The position numbers and the translations under genes are program-made. Shown in pieces: positions 3,713-27,526 of a DNA stretch of 64,000 nt. The notes under the pieces were generated by a model. That model saw only the letters and a list, made by a program, of their open reading frames with translations. It was not told where the DNA came from and searched no databases. Origin of the DNA: Eubacteriales bacterium. Its GTDB lineage: Bacteria; Bacillota; Clostridia; Oscillospirales; CAG-272. The DNA lies in contig JAZQWO010000017.1 in NCBI GenBank assembly GCA_045632405.1, positions 12,512 through 76,511 on the forward strand, written 5' to 3'. How positions within the stretch are numbered: position 1 is the stretch's first letter; each line of letters begins with the position of its first letter.

Positions 3713-6700
3713 TTACTTGGACATTAGTGCATTAATGATTATATCTGTTGCAAAATTTTGCGCTGAAAAAACAAATGAAAATAATACACTGGCTATAGAT
3801 TCAATGGTCTTGCTAGCTAATTCGTTTTTTACTGCATTAAACATACCATTACAAGAGCGCGCAAATAAACCAGCTGTTAATCCAGCTAAGGCAGCTTTAA
3901 ACAAAGAACCCATCCCTGCTTTTTCTCCATTGATTCTATCATTTATTAAAGACATTCCAGCAGCTCCAGCAAATGCTGCCCAGCTAGAAACACCCCCTAA
4001 TGCTCCAACAAACATTCCAGTAAATGCACCTTGTAAAACATTACCTCCGCTAGCTAGTGCATTAATAGCGCCAAAGGCAGCACCAAAAACTGCTCCTGCA
4101 ATTACACCAGCGATAACAGTTCCAGCTCCAAAAGTCACAACACTAATAACAATAGCACCTATTACTAGTCCTACACCTAAGATAATATCCCAGTTGTTTT
4201 CAAAAAATGTTCCAATTGGCTTAAGAACATTATTATTCACCCATTGACCCGCGGCAGAAAAGGCATTACCAATACTTTTGAATATTCCACTCCAATCCCA
4301 TGTAAAAGGATTCCACCAGTCGCATCCGCATGCATCTATTCTTGTTATAGGATTATTACCACAGTAAGAATATAGATTTAATCCGTTAATTGTTTTAGGA
4401 TCAAGATAAGAAATATCATCAATATTGATAAATCTTCCAATCTGTGGGTCATAGTACCTTGTCTGCAAGAAGTACAAGCCTGTTTCGGTATCATAGTAGT
4501 AGGAACGGTATTTGATTGGGTTAACACTACCTAAATCGAAATCAGTGTAATCTATAACTGTATGATTACCCCAAGCATCGTATGTATATCTTACCACAGC
4601 TGTACCTGTTGTGTCAAGTATTTCAATTACATTGCCAAGCAAGTCCTTTTTGTAATAATATACTTCGCCATTATATGCAAAGGCAATAGGCAATGAACTT
4701 TCGTCATAGAAAAATTCAATACCATTAGACTGTGAGAACAAACGACCTTGACTATCATAAATATATGAAATGTCATTTTTCTTAATTCGCTTACCTTCAG
4801 CACTATAATCAAAGGTATTTGAACCAAATGATGTAAGTCTTCTGCCAAATCTCCAAGTTAATGTATTTCCTCTGTATGTTGTTGGGTTGCCTATATCATC
4901 ATATTCAAAGGATTCTCCATTGTATGAAACAAGCTTTTCTCCGCTATATACATACTCAAATACCTCGCCTGTGGCTTCCTTAATAAAATCGTCATCCTTT
5001 AATGTGAACGCATATTCTGTTCTTGTTAAGATGTTACCCTTATTGTCATAAGAGAATACAAAGGTCTTGCCAAGCTTCTTGTTATTTTCTCTTACAAGTC
5101 TGCCTAATGCATCATACTTATATTCAGTTACAAACTGTCCGTTTTCGTACGCCTCACAGATATTGCCCATTTCGTCATACTTGTACTTGATTCTATCCTT
5201 TACAATAAAGCCGTTTTCAGTATTATTACCATAACTGATAGTAAGCGGCATATTTGTTGCGTGGTCGCCGTGCTTGAGGTATGTAATATCCTCTGAATAC
5301 ACCTTAGTACCGAGCCAAGAAACTGTTTTGCCTCTATTTCTGCCAAGACAGTCAACCTTTGGTTCAATTCTTGTAGAGCCTGCACAAGTAAATGCTTTCA
5401 ACTTTTGAGTTTGCTCATCATATTCGCATGTTGTTGTATCTGTTCTTCCGTTATTAAATCTAACAGTTCTTTCAGTTACATTACCGTGTGAATTGTATGA
5501 ATATTCTTCTTCAAACGGTAAGGATGAGCCAAATGTTGCCTCTCTACTGTAAGATGTTACCCTGTCCTGTTCATCATACTCATATTCACTGAATACACAA
5601 TCATTAACAGAGCTATCCATCTTTTTAATTACTCTGTGCTTATCATCATACTCGTTTGTAATATTAAGCTCTATCTGACTTGCGTTTGGATCAAGAAGCT
5701 TTGTTCTGTTTTCTACCACTAAAGCATCATAATCATAAGGCCTCTTATTTACAGATAACACATTACCGTCAAGATCCTCGGTTACAGTGACGTTATCACC
5801 ATTTGCATATGTGGCTGTAACCTTATTTACTGTTTTACCGTTTTCTGTAATTCTATCCTCATAGGAATAAGAAATATGGAGCTGACCGTTAATAGATACA
5901 GAGGTTTCTCTGCCCTTATGGTCGTAGGTATATTCATATACATTATCGCCACTAATTACCTGAGTTAACAAGCCATTAGTATAAAACCTTTGTGTGCTGT
6001 TTTCTTCTCCATCCTCTGTACTCATTGTGATAGAGTCTTGTCCGTTTTCAGGACTAAAGCCGTAGGATAGCTTACTTCCGTTTGGCGAAAGCTTGCTGCA
6101 AACAGTATTTGTGCCTGCCAAATATTCATAGGTTGATTTGCATTTGCCAAGCACATCAAGCTCGCTTATTACCTGACCTATATCGTTGGTTTCCTTTTCG
6201 GTATATAGCTTTGAGGACGTATCTAATGTATTGTACTTTATTGACTTTATTTCATAGCCCTTTTCGTTATATACATATTCCTCAATATCAATTCCGTTTT
6301 CTGCTTCCTTGCCTACCTCATAGCTTTGCTTCCTTACTAATCTGCTGGCACTGTCATATTCCATTGTTTGTACAACTGATGTGGTTTCAGTTTCATCCAC
6401 AGTCTTGACTTCAACCTTTACTACTCTGTCGCTTTCGTCATAAGTATAGTTGGTTGTTACTAATCTCTTAGACCCATCAACTTGAATGTCAATTTCCTTA
6501 ACAACCTTATTATATTCATCAAGTAGCTTTAACTTGTGATTGTTAACAGCTGTTTCCACATTTTGAATTGTTTCCACATCTACTGTTTCCACAGGAAATA
6601 CAAAATTGTCATAAGCGTATTTCTCTAATACAGATTCATTTGCCGACTCGACATTCATATGACCAAAGGCTACATACTCATATTTTTCTGCTTTTGTAAC

Positions 6701-9700
6701 TTTATTTCCTATAATTTCATAGTATTCACAAATATTTTCCGTTTCAGAATCAAAGATATAAACGAGCTTGTCACCATAATTGTCTGTTATAGTTGTAGTT
6801 AAAAGATCGTATTCTAATGATACTTCTGACAATTTTTCTGGCGTTTCAAAACGTTCAACTACATTGTGGCCAACAGATTTAATATTGGTGAACAATGCAA
6901 TTGATTGAGTTTTGTATTCAAAATTGCGAGTTATTTCTGCATATTTATCATCTGATGATACAGTTTCAACATTATCAATTCTTTCAAAAGAAACTGAATG
7001 ACCGTCTGCAAATGTAACCTTCTTAAGAATTCCTACATATACAGTTTTTAAAATGTCATAATCAAATGTTACCTTGTTGCCAACTGCATCTACAATTTCT
7101 GTAAGAAGCTGTCTATCATCATAGAAAAACTTAATTTCCCTCTCGTTTTCGTCATACACTCTTGAAATGCGTGTGTATGTACCCAAATCGTAATAATTAT
7201 ATTCAATAGCGATGTAACCACCGTTATTCTTATAAACTACCACAAGATCTCCGTTCTCGTTAAATCCTTTAGTAACATTATCACTAGTCAAGTAATTAAC
7301 CGGAATTTGAAGCTTGAGCTTTTTAAGTTCTTCAACAAGAGAATGATATTCTTTTGCATAGCTTCTAAACTGTGTTCTGTATTCATCATCCTTTGAGAAA
7401 AGCTCTTCAATCTGCTGTGTAACACTATCATTATATGGAGTGTCTATAGATAACTGCAATTCAACAGAATCAATATTTTCTTCAAGTGACTGCAACTGTA
7501 AAAAGAGTGATCTGAGCTGTGCTGCCTCTCCTTTTGTTAGTACATATAACGAATTTCCATTTTCATCATTATATTTGTCAGTTATACGTTTTATTGTTGT
7601 TTCAGAAACAGTTAAGTACGGGCTGTAAGATGTAATTGATATCTGATCAACAATTTCACCATTTCCGTTAACCAAAACATAGTTTACTATTTGATTAATG
7701 TATGTGATATTATAGTTTTCACTTTCAGCCTCAATTTTTTCATACTCCTTTCTCCTTCTGTAATCAAGTTCTTTCAAACTATTCATTTGATCTTGAATAG
7801 CATTAACCTGTTGCTTTTCGTTTTCAATAAGGGAATAGTTATATATTTCATCCTTTTCCTTAGTATTCTCATCTTCTTGATCTTCTATAGTGATTTCCAA
7901 ATTATTCTTTTGTAAATATAATGATCTATATTGAAGAGCCTCGCCGGTTGTCAATGCATATTTACCATCTTCCGAATCGTCTGAAGCCAACGATGCACCA
8001 CTAATAATTTCGCCATTTTCATTAATCACAACATAATCATCTAAAACATGAGCGTAATAAGCGCAAGCATTTCTCCTTCCATAGAACGCATTGCTCATTT
8101 CTGCTCTTCGAGTGGCATCCAATTGAACCTCTTTCAATGTGTTCATTTGTTTGATCACATCATTTTTCTGATTATTCAATGTCTCCAACTGGGATTCCAA
8201 TATTAACTTTTTTTCATCATTGCTTTCCTGTTCAATGGCTTCTCGTTCTTTTTGCAACATTAATGAACTTAATGAAAGTGCTTCATTTTTTGACATCATA
8301 TTACCTGTTGAATAAGCAAATCTATGGGTTTTCCAGCTAAGCTCAGAAGGAGATATTGTTTCACAAATTTCTCCATTTTCATCAACTACAACAAAATCAG
8401 TTAGAGCATTTTTATAGTTCTCGATCTGCTCTTCAAGTTGCTTTTGTTCATCAATTCTTTGCTCTATCGTATGTAAACCATTCATATTTTCAAGAGTTGT
8501 AACCGCTTTAAGACCGTTATGCGTATAAACCTCTCTATATGCTCTGCGAACACCCTCATCAGACATATAGTACATTATTCCACTTGGCTCTACATTAACA
8601 TATGGTTTTTCAACAGTATGTTTAACACCATTTTTATCGAGATAATAAAAATGCTCATTAAACAAATGTTTTTCACCCATCTCATCTGTGTAGATATAAT
8701 CTATAATTGGTGAGTCTGTTTCCTGTCGTTCCAATTTTTCATGAAGGTTCAATCGTACACTGTCTCCACAGCAAAAATCGTGATTTCCGTTTTTTAGCAC
8801 GTGCGAAATTTCAATACCCATTACATCATCAACTACATCAGTAAAGGTTTTTACTGTTTCTCCGGTAAGCAGATCTACATGTGCATCTACTCCACCAACT
8901 AAACACATACTTTTCTTTGTAGGAATTCTATTTATATTGTCAACATAATTTATTTTTATTGCAGGTGCATTTTCACCAGTAGCATAAAATTTAACTTCTT
9001 CACCAAATGTTACACTATCTAAATATTCAACAATTACTCTAATTTCTGTTTTTGCCGTTTTCAATGCAGTGGATAGGGGCAATAAAATACTGTCACATCC
9101 ACCGGGAATTTTACCCTTTGAAACCAACGTACCGTCAGCATATACAGAAATAGAAAGTTTATTGGCAACCGTTGTTTCCAATGGCGTTATGTACAGTGTA
9201 GCATCAGCAATATTGTTAGCACATAAATCCATCTCATCACGGCTTATGATTATTTCAGATGTGAGTGTTTCGGTAGAACTCTTATATACTTTCAAATAAT
9301 TGCTTACATTTATGTTAGTGGTAACGGTATTTGTTCCCGAGCTACTCTTTACTGATTGCACTATATTATACTTAATTATTTCATCGTTTGATGTTACTAA
9401 CTGAGGGTCAATAATAACAGGGAACTGTCTTTCGGCATCATTAATCCAAGTTTCAGAAGCAACCACATAAAATACGCAGCCCTCATTTTCTGTTTCTTCG
9501 ATTTCATAACATACGTCTGTTGATGTTGCATTATTTGCATCATACATATATGGTGAAGGAATAGTAAATTCCAACTTATCAGTTTTTTCAGAGTATAATT
9601 CAATCTTTGTGTGATCCTCTGACGCCTTCATTTTTAAGCCATTAAGCTTAAATGCGAACTTGAATTTATATTCTTTTTGCTTTTCCTTAACAATAATGTT

Positions 9701-10162
9701 TTCCTTTACATTATTGCCCTGCATAATATATTGAATATCTACTCCGTCGTCTGCTTCTTCATATAAAGCATCACTGCCTACAATAATATCTTCGTTGTCT
9801 GCCTTTCGTGTTTTAACCTTCATGTTGGGCTTTTTTGTGTTCGTCGGATTTTTGCCTTTTTTCTTTGGCTTTTCCATGCCGAGGTATTCCCAAGCAACTG
9901 ACACATCCTTACCTAACACATCAATTCCTTTATTTTCTTTTGAAATCTTTGCTTGAAAATTACCTAAATTTCCCTCGTAGCAATTTTCCTTTTCTACAAG
10001 AGAGTTATCTGTGTGCTTCCATTTTTGCTCTTTTTCATCAAAATAATTGATATTACCATTAGAAATCACACACTCCGTTGTACCGTCATTTTTACGGTAA
10101 TGTCGTTCATTCTTCTTGGTTCTTCTTTCAATTTCACCAAGAATTGTCTTTTCTTTATTCAT
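3713..10162 (-). CDS. large Rhs/YD-repeat polymorphic toxin (WapA-like N-terminus, hydrophobic Gly/Ala-rich C-terminus)
   Basis: YD repeats, Rhs core, PITRIDACG cleavage-site variant, FPVIIDP motif; no signal peptide seen. Confidence 0.92.
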   Translation of the reverse strand: MNKEKTILGEIERRTKKNERHYRKNDGTTECVISNGNINYFDEKEQKWKHTDNSLVEKENCYEGNLGNFQAKISKENKGIDVLGKDVSVAWEYLGMEKPKKKGKNPTNTKKPNMKVKTRKADNEDIIVGSDALYEEADDGVDIQYIMQGNNVKENIIVKEKQKEYKFKFAFKLNGLKMKASEDHTKIELYSEKTDKLEFTIPSPYMYDANNATSTDVCYEIEETENEGCVFYVVASETWINDAERQFPVIIDPQLVTSNDEIIKYNIVQSVKSSSGTNTVTTNINVSNYLKVYKSSTETLTSEIIISRDEMDLCANNIADATLYITPLETTVANKLSISVYADGTLVSKGKIPGGCDSILLPLSTALKTAKTEIRVIVEYLDSVTFGEEVKFYATGENAPAIKINYVDNINRIPTKKSMCLVGGVDAHVDLLTGETVKTFTDVVDDVMGIEISHVLKNGNHDFCCGDSVRLNLHEKLERQETDSPIIDYIYTDEMGEKHLFNEHFYYLDKNGVKHTVEKPYVNVEPSGIMYYMSDEGVRRAYREVYTHNGLKAVTTLENMNGLHTIEQRIDEQKQLEEQIENYKNALTDFVVVDENGEICETISPSELSWKTHRFAYSTGNMMSKNEALSLSSLMLQKEREAIEQESNDEKKLILESQLETLNNQKNDVIKQMNTLKEVQLDATRRAEMSNAFYGRRNACAYYAHVLDDYVVINENGEIISGASLASDDSEDGKYALTTGEALQYRSLYLQKNNLEITIEDQEDENTKEKDEIYNYSLIENEKQQVNAIQDQMNSLKELDYRRRKEYEKIEAESENYNITYINQIVNYVLVNGNGEIVDQISITSYSPYLTVSETTIKRITDKYNDENGNSLYVLTKGEAAQLRSLFLQLQSLEENIDSVELQLSIDTPYNDSVTQQIEELFSKDDEYRTQFRSYAKEYHSLVEELKKLKLQIPVNYLTSDNVTKGFNENGDLVVVYKNNGGYIAIEYNYYDLGTYTRISRVYDENEREIKFFYDDRQLLTEIVDAVGNKVTFDYDILKTVYVGILKKVTFADGHSVSFERIDNVETVSSDDKYAEITRNFEYKTQSIALFTNIKSVGHNVVERFETPEKLSEVSLEYDLLTTTITDNYGDKLVYIFDSETENICEYYEIIGNKVTKAEKYEYVAFGHMNVESANESVLEKYAYDNFVFPVETVDVETIQNVETAVNNHKLKLLDEYNKVVKEIDIQVDGSKRLVTTNYTYDESDRVVKVEVKTVDETETTSVVQTMEYDSASRLVRKQSYEVGKEAENGIDIEEYVYNEKGYEIKSIKYNTLDTSSKLYTEKETNDIGQVISELDVLGKCKSTYEYLAGTNTVCSKLSPNGSKLSYGFSPENGQDSITMSTEDGEENSTQRFYTNGLLTQVISGDNVYEYTYDHKGRETSVSINGQLHISYSYEDRITENGKTVNKVTATYANGDNVTVTEDLDGNVLSVNKRPYDYDALVVENRTKLLDPNASQIELNITNEYDDKHRVIKKMDSSVNDCVFSEYEYDEQDRVTSYSREATFGSSLPFEEEYSYNSHGNVTERTVRFNNGRTDTTTCEYDEQTQKLKAFTCAGSTRIEPKVDCLGRNRGKTVSWLGTKVYSEDITYLKHGDHATNMPLTISYGNNTENGFIVKDRIKYKYDEMGNICEAYENGQFVTEYKYDALGRLVRENNKKLGKTFVFSYDNKGNILTRTEYAFTLKDDDFIKEATGEVFEYVYSGEKLVSYNGESFEYDDIGNPTTYRGNTLTWRFGRRLTSFGSNTFDYSAEGKRIKKNDISYIYDSQGRLFSQSNGIEFFYDESSLPIAFAYNGEVYYYKKDLLGNVIEILDTTGTAVVRYTYDAWGNHTVIDYTDFDLGSVNPIKYRSYYYDTETGLYFLQTRYYDPQIGRFINIDDISYLDPKTINGLNLYSYCGNNPITRIDACGCDWWNPFTWDWSGIFKSIGNAFSAAGQWVNNNVLKPIGTFFENNWDIILGVGLVIGAIVISVVTFGAGTVIAGVIAGAVFGAAFGAINALASGGNVLQGAFTGMFVGALGGVSSWAAFAGAAGMSLINDRINGEKAGMGSLFKAALAGLTAGLFARSCNGMFNAVKNELASKTIESIASVLFSFVFSAQNFATDIIINALMSK

Positions 10163-12592: not shown

Positions 12593-13294
12593 TTATTCAA
12601 TTCGAGAAATTAAGTCCTTTAAAGTAGCAATATCGTAGCCATCCATCGTATAAAAATAATAGTCGTCAGACCAAAACATACTTATCTGTCCGTCATTATA
12701 ATCTATAATAGTTATGTAATTTTCTCCACAAACATAATTTGAAAGTGTTGCTGTCTCTGAATTTACATGAACAGAAGATGTTTCATCTAATATGCGCTGT
12801 TTGAAAGTTGCCAAATGTTCATCGCCTTTATAATAATCAGCCAAAAACATTCTTTTTCCATTTATCGCTATTTCTTCCTCTACACCCTCAGGCAATGTTG
12901 AAGGTTTGTGAACAACCTGTATTTCAGTTACAGCTTCGCTCTGCGTCGTATCATCACCATCATCGTGACTGATTTCAAAATACTCGTTATACATTTCCAC
13001 GATAGTGTTCCATACAGCTTGTCTTACAGCAGACACACTCATCATTGTCGTAAAGCTAAGCGACAGAACAACAAGGCATACGATCGCTACCCTAGAAAGT
13101 ACTCTTTTAAATTGAACCGTAAATGGTTCTATTTTTCCTTTACTAAGAATTTTTTCTTTATTTCTTTTGAACTTCTTGCTAAAAGTAACATTGGAGGTAT
13201 CAATACTGTTGTATAACTCTAATTCTTCGTCGCCACAACCCTCTACCAACAGTTCAAGTAGCAAGTCTGTTCTTTCATTACTTGAACAAGTCAT
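12593..13294 (-). CDS. anti-sigma factor-like membrane protein (DUF4367-like)
   Basis: FSKKFKR, single TM, P..LPEG motif; overlaps ECF sigma stop. Confidence 0.7.
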   Translation of the reverse strand: MTCSSNERTDLLLELLVEGCGDEELELYNSIDTSNVTFSKKFKRNKEKILSKGKIEPFTVQFKRVLSRVAIVCLVVLSLSFTTMMSVSAVRQAVWNTIVEMYNEYFEISHDDGDDTTQSEAVTEIQVVHKPSTLPEGVEEEIAINGKRMFLADYYKGDEHLATFKQRILDETSSVHVNSETATLSNYVCGENYITIIDYNDGQISMFWSDDYYFYTMDGYDIATLKDLISRIE

Positions 13295-13856
13295 AAAGTT
13301 CTTTACCTCCTACTTCTTTCAACTTTTTCTTTGCTCTTTGAATTCTTTTGCGTGCCATATCTTCGGAGATATGTAACGCCTCGCTGATTTCTTTTCCTTT
13401 CATTTTGTACTGAAATCTCAAAATTAAAACATGCCTGTATTGCGGCTCAAGAGAATCAATACATTCTCTTAATTTCTTTTTGAGTTCATTGTTTACCACG
13501 ATTTCAAAAACATCTGATGCTTCATCCTTTACATCATCTTCTCCTCTGTTATCATAATCAGTAGCATCTTTTGTTAAAGATTGATATTTAGTTCTGTCTT
13601 TGCATTTTGCTATTGCTGAATTTTTAATGCAAATAACCAAATATTTGATCTGATCTTCTTCAGGAAAAGATTTAAAACGTTCAAGCATATTAATAACCGA
13701 AAGAAATACATCTTGCACACAATCCTCGGCTAAGCTTTCATCTTTTACTATGGAATAAGCAATAACCTTTAATTTCAATTGGTGTTTTGAATATAATGCT
13801 TCAACGAATATGCGATCATCATCGGAGTCGATCGACATCAATAGAAACTGCAACAT
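13278..13856 (-). CDS. ECF RNA polymerase sigma factor
   Basis: AEDCVQDVFL region 2; EISEALHISEDMARKRIQRAKKKL region 4. Confidence 0.9.
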   Translation of the reverse strand: MLQFLLMSIDSDDDRIFVEALYSKHQLKLKVIAYSIVKDESLAEDCVQDVFLSVINMLERFKSFPEEDQIKYLVICIKNSAIAKCKDRTKYQSLTKDATDYDNRGEDDVKDEASDVFEIVVNNELKKKLRECIDSLEPQYRHVLILRFQYKMKGKEISEALHISEDMARKRIQRAKKKLKEVGGKELYDLFK

Positions 13857-13963
13857 AAATTCACCTCCCTTTATTTTTGTAAAGTCAAGGTAAATTATAT
13901 CACAATTTATTAATTGACTCAATATAATTTCCTATAACTTATATATTAATAAGTCAAAACTTT

Positions 13964-14362
13964 TCAAAATGTGACAAAATTTATTGAAATTTTTTTATTT
14001 TTTACAGAAAAATCTATAAATTTACAAATTTTTAATGCTTTTTCAAATAAATTTTTAGTCGGATTGAACTTTACATTGCTTTCTACATACAGCTTTTCTA
14101 CCAGTAAATTTACACAAACGGTGTCTTTTTCTTCTATTTGTAGTTTTCCACCTAATGCTTCGGCACAGTTGTTTACCATAAGAAGAAAATCTGCCAAATC
14201 CTTGAATTCATAATAGTCATTGCCAACAAAGTTATGTTCTAAAATGCCGATTACTTGCTGTATAGTTGTGTCTGAAATTTTTAAATCTACATATACATCC
14301 TCCCCCTTTATAAAATCTACAGCACTCTTAAAGTTTATTTCATAATTAAAATTCCATTTCAT
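13964..14362 (-). CDS. hypothetical protein
   Basis: ORF with AAGAGG RBS. Confidence 0.55.
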   Translation of the reverse strand: MKWNFNYEINFKSAVDFIKGEDVYVDLKISDTTIQQVIGILEHNFVGNDYYEFKDLADFLLMVNNCAEALGGKLQIEEKDTVCVNLLVEKLYVESNVKFNPTKNLFEKALKICKFIDFSVKNKKISINFVTF

Positions 14363-14417
14363 AAATATAACCTCTTTCTTTGTGAAAATTTGATGTACAA
14401 AATTATAAAATTCCAGC

Positions 14418-14579
14418 ACATCTATCTATACATTAAATGTGAGTATTTAAAACCTTATGTACACTTATTTTTAACAATATGGTATAATTTAGTCGAATTT
14501 CAGTTGCTTTGTTGACTTTTACTACTGCTATATGTTAAAATTTTCACGAAAAATGTACATTTAATGTATAGATAAATGT
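14418..14579. promoter_or_regulatory. segment bounded by 23-bp inverted repeats and containing promoters (candidate invertible switch)
   Basis: 14418-14440 vs 14557-14579 match 22/23; internal TGgTATAAT (14480) and TTGACT-18-TAAAAT (14512-14541). Confidence 0.55.
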
Positions 14580-14609
14580 ACAAAAAACTATGGCTGTGAA
14601 GTCATAATT

Positions 14610-15521
14610 TTATACTAGAGATTTTCCTACTTTGTTCATCATATCAATCTTGTGTGCAAATAATGAGTGTGCATATCTTTTAAGTGTGATAGTGGGGTTT
14701 TTGTGACCTAAAATCTCAGATAAAGTTTTTACATCAACTCCGCATTCTGTCGCTCTTGTAGCAAAAGTATGACGCAAAGAATGAAAGCCTTTGTGTTGTA
14801 TTCCCAATTTTACAAGCAAATTTTCAAAGGTTCTTTGGTACGAACGAATTTGCACCCCTTGATCAGTTCTGCCAAGCACTACAAACTCTCCTTTAGCTTC
14901 TTTCTTTAATTCCTTCAATAACGGGATTAGCTGCTTTGGAAACGGTATAATTCTTTCAGAGCCGATAGTCTTGGTAGAATCGAGTATTTTGATATACTTA
15001 CCATTCTGCCAAGTATCTCTACATGTTTTAGTTATGCTCATTGTAGCACACTTCATATCTACATCATCCCAAGTCAAAGCAAGAAGCTCACCTATTCTTA
15101 ATCCTGTATATAAACAAATTACTATTCCGTATAGGCTGAATTTTTTCTTATCAATGATATATCTTTCTATTTTGTGCTGCTCATCCTTACTAAAACACTC
15201 AACCTGCTTTTCACGGCATTTAGGTCTTTGAATCAATTCCATATAATTTCTTTTGATTTTCTCCAAGTTTGTCGCTATTTGTAAGCAATTATTGAGTATA
15301 TTAATAATTCCATTTACCGAGTTTGACGATAAACCCTCTTCCATAAGGTTAACTACAAATCTTTGCAGCTTTTCTGCTGATATCTCATCCAATTCATATT
15401 CGCCTAATTTAGGAATAATGTGTTTGCTAATTTGTTGCTCATACAAAGCTTGTGTTCTATACTTAGCTCTTGGCTTAACATAATATTCAAGCCATTCAGA
15501 TAGCCAATCCTTAAATTTCAT
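14610..15521 (-). CDS. tyrosine recombinase/integrase (no obvious arm-binding domain)
   Basis: GLRIGELLAL, TKT, HSLRHTFATR, LGHKNPTITLKRYAH catalytic motifs. Confidence 0.95.
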   Translation of the reverse strand: MKFKDWLSEWLEYYVKPRAKYRTQALYEQQISKHIIPKLGEYELDEISAEKLQRFVVNLMEEGLSSNSVNGIINILNNCLQIATNLEKIKRNYMELIQRPKCREKQVECFSKDEQHKIERYIIDKKKFSLYGIVICLYTGLRIGELLALTWDDVDMKCATMSITKTCRDTWQNGKYIKILDSTKTIGSERIIPFPKQLIPLLKELKKEAKGEFVVLGRTDQGVQIRSYQRTFENLLVKLGIQHKGFHSLRHTFATRATECGVDVKTLSEILGHKNPTITLKRYAHSLFAHKIDMMNKVGKSLV

Positions 15522-15654
15522 AATTTTAATCTCCTTTACTATGTATTTTGTACGCATATTCGTACTTTTATTGTGTATTAAAAAATATTGGTTTTGTAAA
15601 ATTTTTGTCAATGTTTGAAAGCTTTCACTAAATGTTTGAAAAGGTCATGTAAAC

Positions 15655-15846
15655 AGGGCGTGTGCTTGTCTTGAACAAGTGGCTCGGCTTCGCCTCGCCA
15701 GACAAGCACACACCCTCACTAAACCAACAAACAAAATCCATTTGAACGAAAGCCGAGGGGTTGCGGGTTTGGCGCTGAGCCGCTTGCCAAAACTCCGCAA
15801 TCACCCTCGGCGGCTTTTTCGTTATTCAATGTAGGATTTTTTGTTT
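15655..15846. other. candidate rolling-circle origin region (dso/sso-like hairpins)
   Basis: GC-rich stems in AT-rich context directly after rep; contains CTTGT-CTTGA-ACAAG and a long imperfect hairpin. Confidence 0.55.
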
Positions 15847-15855
15847 TAGTATAGG

Positions 15856-16896
15856 TTATACGTTAGAGGTCGGCATTTGCTTTATTACTTCTGGCGATAC
15901 CGTTCCCACATATTCGCCCTCTTTCCAACAAGTAAAGTCGTCAAAAAGCAGTAGCTTTCTGTCCTCTAAGCCAATATTACACACTACATCTTCTTCTAAT
16001 ATGTCAGAAACGAAGTATTGTGGTAAGCCTTTAGAATACACTATTTTTTCGCCTGTCTTTTCAATGTATTTCATCATATATGCTAAGGACTCTCCAATGT
16101 TCTCATTTTCATTCAATGGTTCAAAGTCTGTCCTTCCAAACAGTTCATTAAAATAGTCAGATTGCCACGTTTCTTGCATCCTTTTCTTTTTGGTGTTAAA
16201 ATCACGAACCTTTATTAAATATCCCGGTAATGTTTTATCGGGAATATAAAAAATGCCGTGAAAATGTAATCTTTGGTTTTTGGGAGATCTCTCCCATACT
16301 CCTATATACTTCCATCCCTTACGGTTTGCAAATGAGCCCAGCTTATTTCTTAACTTTTTTCTAAAAGAATCCTCTGTATGCTTCTTATCGTCATAAGTGA
16401 ATGTGCAGAAATAATTGAATTTTTGAAGGTTTGCTTTCCTTGTCATTCGTATTCTGCGACAGATAAGGTTTCGTTGCTTTCTTTCGAGCTGCTGATCTAC
16501 ATATTCTTCCGTTTTTTCAAGAGAATAGAAGTACGGTCTTAGCTTTTGTATCATAAGTTCTCGCCTTTTATCCTTCTTCATTTTAAGGGTTTCCCTATAC
16601 ATTTCTTCAAACAACTCTTTACGGGTTGTTTTTCTTGTTTTAGGCTTGCTCTGAGCCTCTTTTTCAACACTTTCTTGCTCATTCAAGTCTATGCTTGACT
16701 GAGAAAAATCCTCTGAATTTTCGGTTATTTCAAGGTCAAAAGGCGGTGCTTTTTCGTCTGTGTTTTCGGAGTCATTAACAGGAACTTCTATGATTTCCTC
16801 AAGGCGTGATACCGTTCTTTTTGTAGGCTTTTCTGTGTGCGGAATACCAATATAATGGCTTCCGTCAAAATATACCTTTGTTTGATAGTACGGCAT
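15856..16896 (-). CDS. HUH rolling-circle replication initiator (Rep)
   Basis: motif I YFCTFTY, motif II RLHFHGI, motif III YMMKY (two Tyr). Confidence 0.88.
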   Translation of the reverse strand: MPYYQTKVYFDGSHYIGIPHTEKPTKRTVSRLEEIIEVPVNDSENTDEKAPPFDLEITENSEDFSQSSIDLNEQESVEKEAQSKPKTRKTTRKELFEEMYRETLKMKKDKRRELMIQKLRPYFYSLEKTEEYVDQQLERKQRNLICRRIRMTRKANLQKFNYFCTFTYDDKKHTEDSFRKKLRNKLGSFANRKGWKYIGVWERSPKNQRLHFHGIFYIPDKTLPGYLIKVRDFNTKKKRMQETWQSDYFNELFGRTDFEPLNENENIGESLAYMMKYIEKTGEKIVYSKGLPQYFVSDILEEDVVCNIGLEDRKLLLFDDFTCWKEGEYVGTVSPEVIKQMPTSNV

Positions 16897-16930
16897 CCGA
16901 TTCCTCCTTTCCCACAGGCTTTAAATTTTA

Positions 16931-19060
16931 CTATGAGATAGTAGAGCCTGTGTTTGAATATAATGCGTCAATAAAATAACTATTTTGCATTCTAAGTTCA
17001 TCAACAGTAGCTCTTTCGGTTGTGTATTCGATATAATCGTCAAGTCCAATATTTGTATTTCTTGCTATGTCGTTAAAATAATCGCTAAAGCAGTCGGTTA
17101 AGAAACGTCTTGCATAAATCTTTTTGTTCATCAAGAAATACTTTTTTCTAACGATTTTCCCATCCATTCTTCCGTTTTCTTTTTCTATAATGGCTATGCT
17201 GTATCCATATTTGTTGTAATTTCTCAAATTGTATTTGAATAGTGCTGATATCACACTTTTGAGTAAGTGCATAAACAAGGTATTATCACCTCGTCTATGT
17301 CTAAAATCATAGTAGATTCCCAAAAACCAACCAAGTGATATTTCCACTATCATTTCCTCATAAATGTAAAATGGTAGTGCAATTCTTTGATTGCCACAGG
17401 ATGCAACAGTTAAAATGTCGCACAAATCCCTGGCATCTGCTCCCCAGCTTTCAGGTCTTTGCTCGTCTGTAAAAACCTTAATGAAAGGGAAATTATCTAT
17501 TGTTGCCGAGTGTCGGCACATTTTTAACCAAGAATTAAATAAATCGTTCTTTTGATTTGTTTCGTCCTTGCTTTTCTTAATTTCACGAAGCTCCAAGTTG
17601 TTACCTCGCTCCTTTCCAATCTCTGACATTACTAAAACACCAAATTCAAAACTGCCGGTTTTCGGATTATCCTCAAGAACCTTTCGTCCAAGCCTTAAAG
17701 CATCATAATCAATGATATGTGCATGCCTTCCTTCACAAGAAGTTGCTTCTGGAAAGAAATCATAAATCCACATAGGGAAGTTACCGGAGTCTATCATAAT
17801 GTTTTCAGTTCTGATAGAGTAGTTAGCTACAATAAGGCTGCTTTCAATTATGTAAACAAAATATAGCTGTGCATAGGTTGACAATACATCAAATAAGTAA
17901 AGATACTTTAGACCATCATCAAAAAACAAACCGTACCTGTTTATATCATAACCATAAAGCTGCCTTTGTGCATTTCCCGTTCTTTCAAATCTTTCTTGTT
18001 TCTTTGCCACCCAATCCTTGATGGTTGCAAGGTTATATACTGTATGGTATTCAATGCACCTTCTAAGCTCGTCCTCAAACGCAATCCACGGGAAGTTAGG
18101 AAAACGCAAATCATTCTTTTGTAGCAAGTCAACCGCTGTTTGCTTGAACATTACCTCTTGGCTAAGGGACATATCAGTTATAACTGTCGTTTTCTTTTTA
18201 CCCATAGAGCCGCAGGTCATTGAAACAATAGGCAGTTCCTTTATAAATCCACAGTTGCGTGCTTCCATGTGCCTTAACTGAGATTTTGCTATTCCTTTCC
18301 TGCGATTATGCAACCACCTTACAACAAAGATAAGTATAATCCACAGGGGGACGTGTATGAAAATAGCCTGTAAATCTATAAAAAGTTTACCAAATTGGAC
18401 GTAGAGTGTCGATAATTCGTATGTAACCACAAAGTAAAAATAGTATGCCAAGAACTCAATCAAGACTGTAATGATATTGAAATTTAGCAACCAAATTACA
18501 GTTGTCGCTGTAACAAGGTTCTGATTGCTCCTATAAAATCTTATGTATTGAGATGCAAAATTTCTTATAGGATGATACGATATTCCCATTAACTTTTTGT
18601 ACACTTTAAGGGGAATGGTATCACGATTATGATTTGTATTGCTTTTACTATATATTGCCTTAATAATCAACCACAGTATTAAGCCAACCGGTATTATGAT
18701 AACTAACGATTTTGCAAAATTACCCAACCATGTGGCTATATTTGACATATATAGATTAAGGTTTTCTCCTGTTGCAAATAGACTGAAATATGATTTCGCT
18801 TTGATTCCAAAGTTATCAAAGCTTTCTGGTAATATGTTTTTCCAATGCAAAACCTTAGAATAATCTATTACCGTCGGTTGAGCGTCGATATCAAGCATAA
18901 ATACCTCTTTGCCAAAAAATTTAAGACTATTCCAAAGGTCTTTAAGCGATTCCCAAACACGGAGATATGAGTCTTTATACACAAATATCGCAAGTGCTAC
19001 AAACCCACCGAATATTAGTATAGTTAGTATAATGTTAATTGCTCTTAATCTTCTATTCAT
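16931..19060 (-). CDS. multi-TM Zot/pI-like (FtsK-HerA superfamily) ATPase
   Basis: N-terminal TM helices; Walker A GSMGKKKTT, Walker B VLVMSE, KMCRH and TDEQRPESWGADARDL motifs. Confidence 0.75.
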   Translation of the reverse strand: MNRRLRAINIILTILIFGGFVALAIFVYKDSYLRVWESLKDLWNSLKFFGKEVFMLDIDAQPTVIDYSKVLHWKNILPESFDNFGIKAKSYFSLFATGENLNLYMSNIATWLGNFAKSLVIIIPVGLILWLIIKAIYSKSNTNHNRDTIPLKVYKKLMGISYHPIRNFASQYIRFYRSNQNLVTATTVIWLLNFNIITVLIEFLAYYFYFVVTYELSTLYVQFGKLFIDLQAIFIHVPLWIILIFVVRWLHNRRKGIAKSQLRHMEARNCGFIKELPIVSMTCGSMGKKKTTVITDMSLSQEVMFKQTAVDLLQKNDLRFPNFPWIAFEDELRRCIEYHTVYNLATIKDWVAKKQERFERTGNAQRQLYGYDINRYGLFFDDGLKYLYLFDVLSTYAQLYFVYIIESSLIVANYSIRTENIMIDSGNFPMWIYDFFPEATSCEGRHAHIIDYDALRLGRKVLEDNPKTGSFEFGVLVMSEIGKERGNNLELREIKKSKDETNQKNDLFNSWLKMCRHSATIDNFPFIKVFTDEQRPESWGADARDLCDILTVASCGNQRIALPFYIYEEMIVEISLGWFLGIYYDFRHRRGDNTLFMHLLKSVISALFKYNLRNYNKYGYSIAIIEKENGRMDGKIVRKKYFLMNKKIYARRFLTDCFSDYFNDIARNTNIGLDDYIEYTTERATVDELRMQNSYFIDALYSNTGSTIS

Positions 19061-19061
19061 A

Positions 19062-19403
19062 CTAACTCACCCCCAATACTACACGAAGCTGCAAATCAAA
19101 TAGTCCTTCGGGAACTGTTACAAAATAATATGGTGTTTCACCATCCAAATAAGTTATAACTCCGTCCTCAAAATTGTCGAAAATTAAAGATTTTCCCACA
19201 CCCTGTGTGTAAAATTTAGCCTCTAATGTGTCTGTAATCTCTAAAAAATACTCTTTGTTGTTATACTGATAAAATGTTCCTTTTAGTGCCTCCTCATTGC
19301 TTTCATTTGAAAATAATCGGCTACCTGTCATACACAAATAGCCGATTATCCATATTACCAGCAACAAGGACACAATCGCTATTATCCTTTTTACTGTTTT
19401 CAT
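19062..19403 (-). CDS. N-terminally anchored membrane protein
   Basis: single N-terminal TM; abuts ATPase start. Confidence 0.7.
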   Translation of the reverse strand: MKTVKRIIAIVSLLLVIWIIGYLCMTGSRLFSNESNEEALKGTFYQYNNKEYFLEITDTLEAKFYTQGVGKSLIFDNFEDGVITYLDGETPYYFVTVPEGLFDLQLRVVLGVS

Positions 19404-19412
19404 AATTTCCTC

Positions 19413-19679
19413 CTAACCTAAAGGAAATAAATGCTTATTAACGAAGTCGAGAACCTTATTTGATGCCTCTTTGTGAGCAGCCTTCTTTTCCTCGCTCGTT
19501 AATACGCGCTTTAAGCTCTTTTGTGCATTATACACCTTTGAGTGATATTCTTCATTTATCCAATTTTCTGGTGTAGGAACACCTGCATCAAAATTGATTT
19601 TACATAAAGTTTCCATTTGCTTTTTATGGTGCTTTTGGCTTTCCTTAAATTCTTTACGTTTTCTGAACCATCCTACCAT
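19413..19679 (-). CDS. small basic hypothetical protein
   Basis: AAGGAG RBS; tight operon packing. Confidence 0.65.
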   Translation of the reverse strand: MVGWFRKRKEFKESQKHHKKQMETLCKINFDAGVPTPENWINEEYHSKVYNAQKSLKRVLTSEEKKAAHKEASNKVLDFVNKHLFPLG

Positions 19680-19837
19680 ACTAAGTGTTTCTCCTTTACA
19701 TAGTTATTTTTATAGGCAATAGCATCAATCAAATCTTCTGCCTCAAAGTCGTGTAAAGACTGTCTACCCCTTAAATTGAATGTTTCAACCGCTACAAAAT
19801 ATCTGTATTCGGCTCTTACTATATGAAATGTTTTCAT
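19673..19837 (-). CDS. 54-aa hypothetical protein (absent from ORF track)
   Basis: MKTFHIVRAEYRYF..KHLVW; ATGA overlap with upstream stop; AAGGAG RBS. Confidence 0.55.
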   Translation of the reverse strand: MKTFHIVRAEYRYFVAVETFNLRGRQSLHDFEAEDLIDAIAYKNNYVKEKHLVW

Positions 19838-20166
19838 GAAAATTTCTCCTTTATTTTTTTATTATTTATTTTCCATTTGCGAATAATTCCCGTTGAAATG
19901 AAAGCGTTTTTTCTAAGAAAATCCACACACCTTTCAAATGATTTACTTGTTGTGTGGACGATACAGCCCATCTTGTTTAAGCAAAGAATAACTCTAAATC
20001 TGTTATTAGTTAAATAAACAATCTGGGCGTAATTACCGTCCTTTTCGTTGCGTAAGAAAAGCCTGCTTTCAAGTTCAAATGATAAGTTATCGTATGTTAC
20101 CTCATACCCAAGCGCCTCCGCTATGTAGTCGAAGTGTTTTGAAAAATCATAAGCCTTGAATGCCAT
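19834..20166 (-). CDS. hypothetical protein
   Basis: AAGGAG RBS; operonic. Confidence 0.65.
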   Translation of the reverse strand: MAFKAYDFSKHFDYIAEALGYEVTYDNLSFELESRLFLRNEKDGNYAQIVYLTNNRFRVILCLNKMGCIVHTTSKSFERCVDFLRKNAFISTGIIRKWKINNKKIKEKFS

Positions 20167-20176
20167 ACGCTACTCC

Positions 20177-20500
20177 TTACTGCTGGTCTTGCTGTTCTTT
20201 TTGGATTCTCTTTAGATGCTTTGCTGTTCTGTGAGCATCTCTAAGTCCGTTCTTGTAACCAATAGCAGCCATCATATGACTACCAAAACGGGTTGAAATA
20301 TGCTCGTAATCTCCAGCTCCGGAATTATAACCAACATGATATGCTTGTTTCCAATCAGTTTGGGTTTCGCTATAGGTCTTTTTGCCCTTTTCCCAACCTT
20401 TTTTGGTTACTTCTTTGGTTTTACCCCAAGCCTTCTTTGTGTTTTCCTTGGTCTTTCCCCAAGCTTCCTTTGCTTTTTCTTTTGTTGGTGATACTGACAT
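20177..20500 (-). CDS. basic protein with 11-mer amphipathic repeats
   Basis: KEAWGKTKENT-KKAWGKTKEVT-KKGWEKGKKTY. Confidence 0.7.
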   Translation of the reverse strand: MSVSPTKEKAKEAWGKTKENTKKAWGKTKEVTKKGWEKGKKTYSETQTDWKQAYHVGYNSGAGDYEHISTRFGSHMMAAIGYKNGLRDAHRTAKHLKRIQKEQQDQQ

Positions 20501-20501
20501 A

Positions 20502-22118
20502 TTAAGCCACCTCACCTTCATCTGGTGTAGGAACAACTGTTACAGGTGTTTCAACAGCATTTCCTTGATTGTCAAATACTATTGCTACATTTGCGAACTC
20601 TCTTTCAGGGTTGCACATACCGTAACCAATGTCTTGTGGCTCTGTATAAATTGCCTCGTAAACGAATATATCACCTGCTTTTGCAGTTATTTCACACTCT
20701 GGAAGAATGTAGCCTGCAAGTCCTGCTCCGTGGTGTCCTGTTCCAATACCTGCTGCGTTAATACCGCCTTGTGCATTGATAACTGTATCTTCACCGATAA
20801 TTTCTATATAACATACACCGTAGTTTGTTTGACAGTATGTATCATAACCTGTTCCAATGCCTGCGCCGTATTGACCGCCTGTTACATTGATTTTAGAATT
20901 ATCAATGAAAATCTTTACATACTGGTCCTTGCTTACATTCTTGTAAACACGGCTACCACCAATGCCGGCTGATGCTGTTCCACCGATTACTTCCTCAAAA
21001 TTACAATTTTGAATTGTAATATCAACCGCAGTCCAATAAAGAGCTCCGATTGCTGCACTCTTAGAGCCGCCTTCAGCTTTCTTTACTGTTACGTTCTTCA
21101 TTTTAAGAATGCCTGAGTCATAGTCGCCATCAACACCACAACCGACACCGATAGCACAACCACCTTCGGCTTCTGCCTTACCATAGCTTAAATCACTTGC
21201 TATAAATGTATCCTGTGCAAATCCGCCCTTGGCATATTCAATAACGGTATTTTCAATAACTACAACTGACTTATCTCCACCACCAATACCAAAAGCCTTA
21301 TTACCATAACCCTTAGCTGTGAGTGAAGCCATATCCTTAATGGTTAGTGAACCTATGTTCTTGACGGCATTTCCTATGCCACTACCCCTCTTATTCATAT
21401 ATGTTTCATCATCTGTGTTATCATAGCCCTCAATACCTGTGTATTCAAGACCGTTATTACCTACCGCTACAAGCGTATCACCTGTAAGTAAAAGCTTTGT
21501 TCCATAAGGAACTTCGATACCATCACCGTCTTTTGCACCTGTTAAAGATACATTACCTACGATTTTTGCTGTAATATCTGCACCGTCAAGGAGAGCTAAA
21601 CCGCTATCTCCCTCAGTTGTTGCCAATGACATTACATTATCAAGAATGAGAGTTCCTTTGCCACCAATGTCAATTCCATTGAAATGACCGTTCATAATGG
21701 TAAGTTTACCTTCTTCAAGCTGAACACTTACAGGCTTATCGAAATCTTCAGAGAAAATAAAGGTTACTTCCTTATTGCCAAGTGAAATTGGCTCTGAAAA
21801 CTCAATGGTTGAAGGAATCGCTATTGCTGCACCACTTTCAATAGTTTCAAGTGCTGTCGCAAGCTCTGTTAAATCTTCAATTTCAATGATTTCAGGTTCG
21901 CTTGGCTCGTCAGTTGGCTTATCATTTGGATCTTCGATATCAACATTTGTATCGCCTGTGCCGGTATCTGTGCTTGTATCGGTATTAGTGTCAGTTGTTG
22001 AATCTGTGCCTGTGTCTGTTGAATTATCTGGAGCGTCTGGTGTAACCCAAATCGCAACTGCTCCAATGGCTGCGATTGCTAAGAATACTGCTAAAAAAAT
22101 CATTATAAATTTCTTCAT
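20502..22118 (-). CDS. membrane-anchored beta-helix adhesin-like protein
   Basis: N-terminal TM, Thr/Asp-rich stalk, repeated AGIG(G/T)G motifs. Confidence 0.75.
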   Translation of the reverse strand: MKKFIMIFLAVFLAIAAIGAVAIWVTPDAPDNSTDTGTDSTTDTNTDTSTDTGTGDTNVDIEDPNDKPTDEPSEPEIIEIEDLTELATALETIESGAAIAIPSTIEFSEPISLGNKEVTFIFSEDFDKPVSVQLEEGKLTIMNGHFNGIDIGGKGTLILDNVMSLATTEGDSGLALLDGADITAKIVGNVSLTGAKDGDGIEVPYGTKLLLTGDTLVAVGNNGLEYTGIEGYDNTDDETYMNKRGSGIGNAVKNIGSLTIKDMASLTAKGYGNKAFGIGGGDKSVVVIENTVIEYAKGGFAQDTFIASDLSYGKAEAEGGCAIGVGCGVDGDYDSGILKMKNVTVKKAEGGSKSAAIGALYWTAVDITIQNCNFEEVIGGTASAGIGGSRVYKNVSKDQYVKIFIDNSKINVTGGQYGAGIGTGYDTYCQTNYGVCYIEIIGEDTVINAQGGINAAGIGTGHHGAGLAGYILPECEITAKAGDIFVYEAIYTEPQDIGYGMCNPEREFANVAIVFDNQGNAVETPVTVVPTPDEGEVA

Positions 22119-22174
22119 AAAACTCCTTTCTGCGCAAGTGGGAATTTAATCCCACCTACGACTTAAAATTTAAT

Positions 22175-24181
22175 TTATTGTGTTGTGTTTTGATTAGATT
22201 CTTCCTGTTCTTTAGGCTTGTCCCGCTTCTTTTTTACGGCTTTCCATAATAGTTTGAATGGGAACGTTATAGCCCATATAATGCCCTTAATTACTACTGC
22301 TATGAGCTTAATAATAAGTGGCAAAATAGGGTAAAAAATCACTACCAAAAGAACAAGAATTAAAAGTGCTAATACTAACTTCCACCATTCAAATTCAAGT
22401 GGTGGAGGTGTAAAACCATTTACGATATCCATAGGGATTGATACAACAGGAATAACATGATAAACGCCATCCTTATTGAATGTAAGCTCTATGATGTCGA
22501 AGTCAAAAAATACGGTTTGCTGTGCTACGTATATGTCTGTGCTATTTATGTTTTGAACATGTGGAGCAAAGGCAGGAGCACAATAATAGTCCGTATTTGC
22601 AAAACGGAACAGAATAACTCTTTCGTTATTAGCTTTTGCTTCATCGAAAAAATCCTCTAAATCGTCAACGTCATCAGAATTAACCAATAGTCTTTTGGCA
22701 ACATCGTCTGGATCTCCGGAAAAATCACTTTCCTTTACTTCATAAATCGGTGCTACATCCTTGTATTCTTCGCTGGTATCAGGCCAAGAAAAACCATAAT
22801 CCCAAAACTTATTCCACCAATTATGAGTACTATCATAACTATTCAAATCAAAAATATCACCTAAATCAATGGTTTTGTCGTTGTAGCCCATTGTTCTACC
22901 ACTATCAACATATGTTTCAAACAAATCCTTGCTGATTTTTCTGCCATTACAGTCAATATATCCGTTTCCAAGATTATTAGAATAGCTATAAATCCATTCT
23001 GCAACCTGTGTACTATCAACCGAACCGGCTATTGGATCAGAGTACAGATATTTGAATACGCTATCTACATCAACAGCAGGAGAATAGAAGGCATAAGGCA
23101 TAATATTTGATACTTTTTTGCTTGTATATGTTTGAGAAAAAAGTCCTGTTTGTGAGGTTAAATTCTTATTGTAAGTCCAATCAAAATAGTGATTTGCATA
23201 ACCATTTCCGCTTTGTCCGTAATAACCGCTATACAAAAAATTATCTACCGATGAATTGTATTCTCCTGTATATGTACCCGTATATGGCAAAAGTGTGTTT
23301 TTATAATAGTCATAATTAGAAGTGATGGCTGCCATTTTGGTCTTATATTCCCACCATTCAGCTCGTATTTTTTGCAGATTACCATATTCCTCGAAAATTC
23401 GGTTTGGCACTGCAAAATATACCGTGTTTACCTCGTTATAATGGTCTGCACCAAGACTTGACACTCCTGTTCTGTAATTGGTGTGGTGAACCTCTAATGA
23501 TAATGTTTCAAGGTTTTCTACTGTGCAATTAAGGTTAGACTCTGCGTTTTCATCAGGTCCATAGCCCTTAGCATAACCTGTGAACTTATATGTACCACCT
23601 ACCCCATATTCTATTACATTGGTATTTCCATTCGTAAGAAGCTCAATACCTGATACCTTGTACACTCTTTCATTGGAGTTTACTCGGTCTATGAGAGTTT
23701 TTCCGTCCTTGCCTTCTTTATCAACAATTTTGAACTTGTAAAACAATCCTTTATAGTTGCTTTGGTTCGCTTCGTTAATAAATTCAAGCTCGAATTTGTC
23801 GTAATGCTCTCCAAATTCATCAGAATATGTTGCTAACTGAATTTTGTTTTGCTTTGAAGTTTTGTCTATATCTAAACCTTGTGGGTTATACACATAAACA
23901 TAAAGCCCAAAATCGTCCTTCTTGCTTTCCTTGTAAGTGTAGCAAAACTCTATAAAGCTAAGAATTTGTATGCTGCTTTTCTCATTAAAAGGAAAGTTTT
24001 TGATGTCAAATGGCAATCCGTTTACTGTTGAAGAAAACAAATCGTCAAGTACGTTTGAACTCTCAAAGCTTAGTCCATTAGATGTCCCTGCCGCAACAAC
24101 GCTTAAAGGGTAAAATACTGATGTTAGAAGTATTAAAACTACTGACAACAAACAAAAAATAGATTTTTTGAGTTTACTCAT
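22175..24181 (-). CDS. type I membrane protein (signal peptide, large ectodomain, C-terminal TM, basic tail); spike/attachment candidate
   Basis: MSKLKK..VVAA signal; WWKLVLALLILVLLVVIFYP.. anchor; KKKRDK tail. Confidence 0.75.
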   Translation of the reverse strand: MSKLKKSIFCLLSVVLILLTSVFYPLSVVAAGTSNGLSFESSNVLDDLFSSTVNGLPFDIKNFPFNEKSSIQILSFIEFCYTYKESKKDDFGLYVYVYNPQGLDIDKTSKQNKIQLATYSDEFGEHYDKFELEFINEANQSNYKGLFYKFKIVDKEGKDGKTLIDRVNSNERVYKVSGIELLTNGNTNVIEYGVGGTYKFTGYAKGYGPDENAESNLNCTVENLETLSLEVHHTNYRTGVSSLGADHYNEVNTVYFAVPNRIFEEYGNLQKIRAEWWEYKTKMAAITSNYDYYKNTLLPYTGTYTGEYNSSVDNFLYSGYYGQSGNGYANHYFDWTYNKNLTSQTGLFSQTYTSKKVSNIMPYAFYSPAVDVDSVFKYLYSDPIAGSVDSTQVAEWIYSYSNNLGNGYIDCNGRKISKDLFETYVDSGRTMGYNDKTIDLGDIFDLNSYDSTHNWWNKFWDYGFSWPDTSEEYKDVAPIYEVKESDFSGDPDDVAKRLLVNSDDVDDLEDFFDEAKANNERVILFRFANTDYYCAPAFAPHVQNINSTDIYVAQQTVFFDFDIIELTFNKDGVYHVIPVVSIPMDIVNGFTPPPLEFEWWKLVLALLILVLLVVIFYPILPLIIKLIAVVIKGIIWAITFPFKLLWKAVKKKRDKPKEQEESNQNTTQ

Positions 24182-24192
24182 ATCTACACCCC

Positions 24193-25375: not shown

Positions 25376-25383
25376 ATATCAAA

Positions 25384-26550: not shown

Positions 26551-26650
26551 TAAAAATCCTCCTAAAAATTTGATTTTAAAGTATAAAATAGGCTTGTGCT
26601 CGTATTTGAACACAAGCCCATTTCGTTAGTTATTAAGCTCTTGATTTATC

Positions 26651-26989: not shown

Positions 26990-27011
26990 TTTTAAATCCT
27001 CCTAAATTTGA

Positions 27012-27332: not shown

Positions 27333-27526
27333 CTTCGATAGCTCCTTTCTATAACATAAAAGTAATGGTTCGGCTCTTCGCCTATATTCAATTTTCAATT
27401 TGTAATCAGAGTTAATTTAAACATTTTGTTTGTGCGATCTGTTTTGGTCGGTGGCCACCGTTATCTACCTCGTAATACCGCAACAATCAATCGTTTTGTT
27501 TTCGCTCTCTTCGTGATTACGATAAC

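Follow-up and report, generated by a model that had tools for sequence, protein, structure and literature searches.

Invertible promoters are well known. In fimS of E. coli, a promoter-bearing segment is flipped between ON and OFF by a neighboring tyrosine recombinase (FimB or FimE), and the switch uses sites for the host proteins IHF and Lrp. In the RecV system of C. difficile, each repeat is proposed to consist of two binding motifs around a spacer, and the partner sites of a tyrosine recombinase need identical spacers; the description gives 6-bp spacers, motifs of about 13 bp, no N-terminal DNA-binding domain in RecV, and several switches served by the one enzyme (PMC12282940). TnpI of Tn4430 acts on the IRS, whose core site adjoins two accessory motifs that the enzyme itself recognizes and that control directionality; TnpI resolves cointegrates, and both accessory motifs are present in every site (PMC2847244). 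Within the IntTn916 group, the arm-binding domain is described as preserved throughout, and the arm-less invertases (Rci) are placed in another integrase subgroup (PMC8138268). Finally, Jin et al. (2025) include a 33-member group of Clostridia invertons, group 139, which is linked to a tyrosine recombinase, invertase group 35 (PMC11892184).

Here, we describe a locus in a 64,000-nucleotide stretch of DNA (the window) that combines features of these systems. Like fimS, it has a promoter segment and a neighboring tyrosine recombinase; the enzymes are weakly alike (21.8 bits against the tyrosine-type DNA invertase model, whose cut-off is 222). Unlike at fimS, the extra sites resemble the recombinase's own arms. 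As in the “spacer code” of RecV (PMC12282940), the two spacers of any one switch are identical and inverted and those of separate switches differ, and a paralogous switch in the same genome (on C6) has a different spacer. In contrast to RecV, the spacer is 7 bp, a core-binding domain is part of the enzyme, every switch comes with an enzyme of its own, and a promoter lies in the segment. As with TnpI, predicted additional motifs for the recombinase stand at a set position next to a core site (in 18 and 16 of 37 loci), but only one of the two inverted sites is flanked by these accessory motifs, and one motif is inside the flipped segment. The recombinase also differs from IntTn916 in having no N-terminal arm-binding domain, and by its sequence it may be a case parallel to Rci, that is, an arm-less invertase within an integrase clade. 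Groups 139 and 35 are similar in that these are Clostridia invertons, nearly all near a tyrosine recombinase, with both orientations in reads; the two examples cited for group 139 have 206 and 228 bp between repeats, versus 116 here (PMC11892184). The cassette, compared by description only, may or may not belong to this group. Our literature search, mostly without subscription papers, returned no identifiable description of this cassette. What is new is the arm-less enzyme together with putative accessory half-sites that flipping would repartition; the principle of a flipped promoter is known.

Two inverted recombination sites beside an arm-less recombinase

The features of the locus and its island are, in window coordinates:

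13278–13922, minus strand: ECF sigma gene (13278–13856) and its own promoter-like site (13894–13922); probably independent of the switch
13964–14362, minus strand: gene for a 132-aa protein of no known family, with a ribosome binding site (RBS); likely target of the switch
14389–14399, minus strand: putative outer accessory half-site TGTACATCAAA, which would stay in place on flipping and lies between switch and RBS; its score of 6.7 falls just short of the cut-off (7), and its offset of 28 is the modal one
14415–14443, no strand: gene-side site, with arm AGCACATCTAT, spacer CTATACA (14426–14432), and arm TTAAATGTGAG; the layout is as in 40 of 51 homologous loci
14433–14564, no strand: putative invertible segment, 132 bp; judging by a probable flipped junction in X8 and by relatives in the opposite orientation, the window has the OFF state, with the promoter toward the recombinase
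14458–14468, plus strand: putative inner accessory half-site TGTACACTTAT, inside the segment; matrix score 8.6, offset 27
14460–14488, plus strand: second promoter candidate, with a perfect extended -10 (TG-n-TATAAT, 14480–14488) and a weak -35 (3 of 6); not listed by the promoter scan
14512–14541, plus strand: main sigma-A-like promoter, TTGACT (14512)-18-TG-n-TAAAAT (14541), 10 of 12 matches in the promoter scan
14554–14582, no strand: recombinase-side site, with arm TGTACATTTAA, spacer TGTATAG (14565–14571), and arm ATAAATGTACA
14584–14611, no strand: weak hairpin lying between the switch and the stop codon of the recombinase gene; it may terminate transcription in either direction
14610–15521, minus strand: 303-aa arm-less tyrosine recombinase (R142, K184, H247, R250, H273, Y283); likely the invertase
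15551–15559, plus strand: 9-mer TACGCATAT that resembles an arm, upstream of the recombinase, with a possible autoregulatory role; 4 of the 37 loci have it, and these all belong to the closest clade
30335–31849, plus strand: large serine integrase, likely the integrator of the island
31982–32013, plus strand: att-like right end, GGTGTTCAACTGAG...GGCGCGCCA, with a terminator-like hairpin after it

Two arms of 23 nt each (14418–14440 and 14557–14579) are complementary at 22 of 23 positions and lie 116 nt apart, on either side of an intergenic segment. When recomputed, they were the sole such pair in window positions 1–32000, and none of 100 local shuffles of that stretch yielded one. The earlier note's 23-bp inverted repeats are thus borne out, as are its four copies of TGTACA around the switch (at 14394, 14458, 14554, and 14577). 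Each 23-mer forms the middle of a longer arm-spacer-arm site, with an 11-bp arm, a 7-bp spacer, and another 11-bp arm. The two spacers are reverse complements of each other, and because inverted matching spacers lead to inversion, the part that flips should be 14433–14564. The previously stated length of about 116 bp therefore holds for the gap between the 23-mers but not for the flipping part, which is 132 bp. In six of eight strains (X1, X2, X4, X5, X8, and X9), the A at 14564 is a T, which makes the recombinase-side site a perfect 11-7-11 palindrome. A search of Rfam gave no match near the switch. Elsewhere in the window, another 23-bp inverted repeat is centered near 60130.

The recombinase gene starts at 15521 and has an RBS (AAGGAG). 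Core-binding and catalytic domains are present, with Pfam's Phage_int_SAM_3 starting at residue 3, and the domain scan found no arm-binding domain, which agrees with the earlier description of an arm-less tyrosine recombinase beside the repeats. The catalytic set is intact (the RKHRH pentad and the tyrosine nucleophile), with K184 placed by alignment to the best solved relative, the Int of Tn1549; the beta-stranded insertion of the catalytic domain was aligned to the same protein from sequence alone. The XerC, XerD, and XerS models gave 77.7, 62.4, and 32.3 bits against cut-offs of 335, 330, and 267, which does not support a Xer identity. Close homologues of the recombinase are mostly 301–307 aa. 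It was found at E ≤ 1e-80 in 38 of 401 genomes of the family, and at least 5550 protein clusters match it at E ≤ 1e-60. The scan of viral contigs found no relative; phage and plasmid records gave matches of 30–36% identity, among the matches listed. The adjacent recombinase is the likely catalyst of the flip. We rejected autoregulation through the upstream half-site as a general feature, as this half-site is present in just 4 of 37 loci.

Homologous loci in both orientations

We gathered 58 distinct loci with recombinase homologues of at least 46% identity, including the window's own, after dropping five duplicates. Seven of these were set aside because their downstream DNA was too short, and 51 remained. 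We chose sites by arm symmetry alone, so the identity of the spacers is a free test. Among the 39 loci scoring at least 36/54, 35 have spacers that are identical and inverted within the locus, and there are 22 different spacers. Between loci, spacers match at a mean of 3.6 of 7 positions and match perfectly in 53 of 1482 pairs. Overall, the cassette, with spacers matched at 6 or more of 7 positions, is present in 40 of 51 loci; these counts are not independent trials because the loci are related. The other 11 fail the automated spacer test, and in three of them (L039, L055, and L061) a repeat pair can be seen by eye. As a control, the cassette was found for none of six longer integrases (38–40% identity) versus four of six short class-level homologues from other families.

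In all 40 loci, the -10 element of the best sigma-A-like promoter ends 12–24 nt from a spacer. The promoter is directed toward the recombinase (OFF) in 32 of these loci and away from it (ON) in eight. The earlier note had named a single orientation in deep reads and relatives, together with no recombinase-dependent inversion, as an outcome that would speak against a switch; among the relatives, four cassette types are found in opposite orientations (L030/L032, L031/L054, L025/L052, and L042 versus L001/L040/L041/L048). For L030/L032, L031/L054, and L042/L041, the inner arms are swapped and the outer arms are unchanged, which places the exchange at the spacer.

Leaving out three near-duplicate cassettes gives 37 loci. 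Their spacer-to-spacer distances cluster at 126–129, 137–139, 147–150, and 157–158 bp. These clusters are about one helical turn apart (the resultant length is 0.80 at 10.5 bp, as compared to a 99% bound of 0.36 for the uniform null, with the caveat that the loci are related).

The first downstream gene varies widely across the family, which fits a portable cassette. Most commonly, the gene behind the switch encodes a member of one family of proteins, mostly of 130–165 aa, with the motif FxGHR (L015, L018, L020, L030–L032, L045, L051, and L054). In L027, L029, L033, and L062, the first gene past the switch encodes 57–91 aa that by eye resemble the N-terminus of DUF4367 anti-sigma-like proteins; these may be phase-variable decoy anti-sigma factors. 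L034 and L069 have an extra full or partial third site beside the recombinase-side site, which may allow more than two states. When L022 is compared to L052, its full gene-side site has apparently been lost, leaving the promoter locked OFF. The window's genome has a paralogous switch, L001 (C6:21891–25906), which has a 67% identical recombinase and the same cassette with the spacer CTGTATA. Its island has a truncated Rep and a 93% identical serine integrase, and the switch faces a 96-aa orphan, which is followed by a convergent gene.

Promoters and the genes likely to be controlled

An earlier reading had placed two plus-strand sigma-A-like promoters in the segment. The main one is well matched, and the second is half borne out: its -10 is perfect and its -35, which overlaps the inner accessory half-site, is weak. 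After a flip, the main promoter would lie on the minus strand from 14485 to 14456, about 90 nt before the ATG at 14362. The scan listed no other minus-strand promoter within 14046–15012. Given the match to the consensus and the conserved position in 40 loci, the segment's promoter is predicted to be able to face the gene.

The 132-aa gene looks real, judging by the pattern of substitutions: of the 16 listed changes in X5, 12 are at codon position 3 and none are at position 2, and 11 are synonymous. Its relatives are one close cluster and three distant proteins at 39–54%. We found no family for it in Pfam, PHROG, NCBIfam, or PADLOC. The Atlas gave clusters of hypothetical proteins only, plus one lead to Imm70 at 0.89 (23% of members), of low recognition value. 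The AlphaFold model of the protein has a pLDDT of 34.

The ECF sigma gene that follows has its own consensus promoter (TTGAGT-17-TG-n-TATAAT, from 13922 to 13894), so control by the switch probably reaches mainly the 132-aa gene. There is no terminator between the two genes, so read-through is possible. The idea that a flip would aim the promoters at the 132-aa gene and then at the ECF sigma gene is therefore likely for the former and weaker for the latter.

The hairpin at 14584–14611 has a predicted energy of -7.8 kcal/mol (z = -2.65 on the plus strand and z = -1.3 on the minus strand). Hairpins of -10 to -21 kcal/mol, mostly with a U run, are at this position in the close relatives L001, L008, L012, L040–L043, L048, and L049, and many other loci have no room for one. 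In the OFF state, the hairpin may stop the antisense transcript before it reaches the recombinase. The promoters were earlier said to point antisense into the 3' end of the recombinase: this is the OFF orientation, but the antisense part is weaker, since the transcript may be cut short.

Orientation of the window's own cassette in gut runs

We examined 8 of the 20 runs that carry the stretch, all as contigs. Seven of the eight have the window orientation alone: contigs bridge both junctions in this orientation in X2, X3, X4, X5, X9, and X11, and they bridge the right junction in X1. No assembled ON copy of the exact window cassette was found.

In X8, whose strain is about 97% alike to the window, the contigs break at the switch. 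One ends at 14452, another spans 14423–14594 (172 nt, depth 6.4), and a third starts at 14565. The fourth contig has 50 nt (depth 2), of which 38 letters match 14557–14594, with an A at 14564. We simulated the assembly graph at k = 31, an assumed value that is backed by overlaps of 30 nt. All four of the ends and lengths in X8 were reproduced solely by the window orientation plus the right flipped junction; a SNP bubble, both junctions, or the left junction alone gave different ends or lengths. From this, we infer that the short contig, whose 12 decisive letters are not displayed, is the flipped right junction. The left flipped junction is absent from X8, and no strand-changing joint is listed there. 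A library artefact or a second strain that is fixed ON would look the same. The read check for both orientations that the earlier note had proposed, as carried out on the contigs of these eight runs, thus yields a probable flipped junction in X8 and the window orientation only in the other seven. According to the simulation, the start of a contig at 14441 in X1 is not a graph break that inversion predicts, and we discarded it as evidence.

Putative accessory half-sites beside the gene-side site

We built an arm matrix from the core arms of the 37 loci (consensus TACATCTAT), set all of the loci to OFF, and used a score cut-off of 7. Extra half-sites were found on both flanks of the gene-side site: inside the segment at offsets of 24–27 in 18 of 37 loci, and outside at offsets of 26–28 in 16 of 37. 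In the controls, there were 0–2 hits in other windows, none in the wrong orientation, none at the other site, and a mean of 0.3 in shuffled sequences. Detectable accessory sites are missing from about half of the loci. In the window, the half-sites are the TGTACA copies at 14458 and 14394. As the inner half-site lies within the flipped segment, flipping would carry it to the other site.

It is plausible that these half-sites bind extra recombinase and bias the direction of the flip. Such a role in directionality fits the 32:8 skew toward OFF, and selection for OFF would account for the skew equally well.

The island and its integration

The GC content is low up to about window position 32000. 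The reverse complement of the att-like arm comes after the 3' ends of tRNA-Arg(ACG) (C5:545–620) and tRNA-Ser(TGA) (C26:542–629) in the same genome, and the tRNA-Arg(ACG) on C5 ends in GGCGCGCCA. Two att-like right ends (31982–32013 and C6:28528) and the two tRNA 3' ends share one inverted arm. The left junction of the island is not joined in the assembly, and contig gaps hide which left end is its own. Ends of the serine-integrase type at the 3' ends of tRNAs suggest that integration is likely the job of the serine enzyme and that the tyrosine enzyme likely inverts. This supports the earlier suggestion that, with a serine integrase present, the tyrosine enzyme may be an invertase.

A rolling-circle Rep is encoded upstream of the recombinase. 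Among the 34 switch loci with enough upstream DNA, Rep is present in four, which rules out a fixed link between the switch and a Rep element. The region at 15856–27398 contains this Rep (ORF2/G2P family), a membrane protein of 709 aa that has a Walker-A-like motif and matches no family, and a run of unannotated envelope-like genes. Between Rep and the recombinase is a 17-bp inverted repeat (15655–15716), matched by many unrelated contigs, that may act as a terminator or form the hairpin of a replication origin. The RHS genes (1209–2312 and 3713–10162) encode an RHS protein of 2149 aa and, downstream of it, an RHS fragment whose C-terminus differs. They have a common repeat of 1062 nt (90%), each is followed by a small gene, and the arrangement is like a polymorphic toxin array. 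A Gut-1 RNA and a cobalamin riboswitch lie at 52144–52225 and 57718–57794.

Proposed mechanism and alternative explanations

We think it very probable that this locus is a recombinase-driven invertible promoter switch. The invertible promoter that was first proposed from the sequence is supported by the predicted junction in X8 and by the pairs of cassettes in opposite orientations. The recombinase would join the two inverted arm-spacer-arm sites and thereby flip the 132-bp segment. In the OFF state, which is the state of the window, the promoter would face the recombinase, and in the ON state it would face the 132-aa orphan gene. With the promoter presumably active, the orientation would set this gene ON or OFF. 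The two accessory half-sites by the gene-side site would take extra recombinase and bias the reaction. The recombinase and the switch together would form a portable cassette that is placed before many unrelated genes in islands of gut Clostridia.

Could the family flip while the window's copy is in effect fixed in the OFF state, or depends on another recombinase acting in trans, for example the paralogue on C6? Both the assembly and seven of the eight runs are OFF, the gene-side inner arm has a low arm score (3.8, as compared to a mean of 8.7), and the 67% identical paralogue in the same genome has similar arms. We nevertheless consider this unlikely, given the predicted flipped junction in the close strain X8 and a cis enzyme that has all of its catalytic residues and adjoins the switch throughout the family. 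Another idea is that the repeats are operator sites only, at which the recombinase or another protein represses the promoter without strand exchange. Binding would explain neither why the spacers stay identical and inverted in each locus yet vary from locus to locus nor why opposite orientations with swapped inner arms exist, which makes this idea highly improbable, even though the extra half-sites, which are unable to recombine alone, and the half-site upstream of the recombinase in the closest clade would suit it.

There is similarly little chance that the sites belong to a separate element, as its att arms or as a dif-like site for resolution, with the tyrosine enzyme integrating, excising, or resolving DNA. 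Inverted spacers 139 bp apart would give inversion, not excision; the genome contains no third copy of the site (allowing up to 3 mismatches); and the ends of the island match tRNA 3' ends, beside a serine integrase. This explanation could draw on the closest solved relative being the Tn1549 integrase and on the Rep upstream, as replicons often carry resolvases, but the enzyme is far below the Xer cut-offs and Rep is found in just the four switch loci noted above.

Returning to the invertible switch, we also make a broader and more tentative proposal, which is possible but which we hold with some doubt. An undescribed and very large family of arm-less Tn916-like recombinases may constitute a portable switch cassette with a built-in ratchet, helical phasing, and a 7-bp spacer code. 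In the ratchet, the OFF state would have both half-sites at one site, and a flip would leave one half-site at each site, so that the enzyme alone would set unequal rates for ON and OFF. With helically phased spacing and this spacer code, a single genome would be able to accommodate many orthogonal switches.

Implications

For orthogonal memory switches in Gram-positive hosts, the family could be a source of about two dozen naturally occurring spacers. If the direction is set by the accessory sites without host factors or a partner protein, then the cassette would be a compact and testable model for how tyrosine invertases acquire directionality. Phase variation has been little studied in uncultured gut Clostridia, and the cassette is common in these bacteria. 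Because it is found before many unrelated genes, it may give ON/OFF control to any island cargo.
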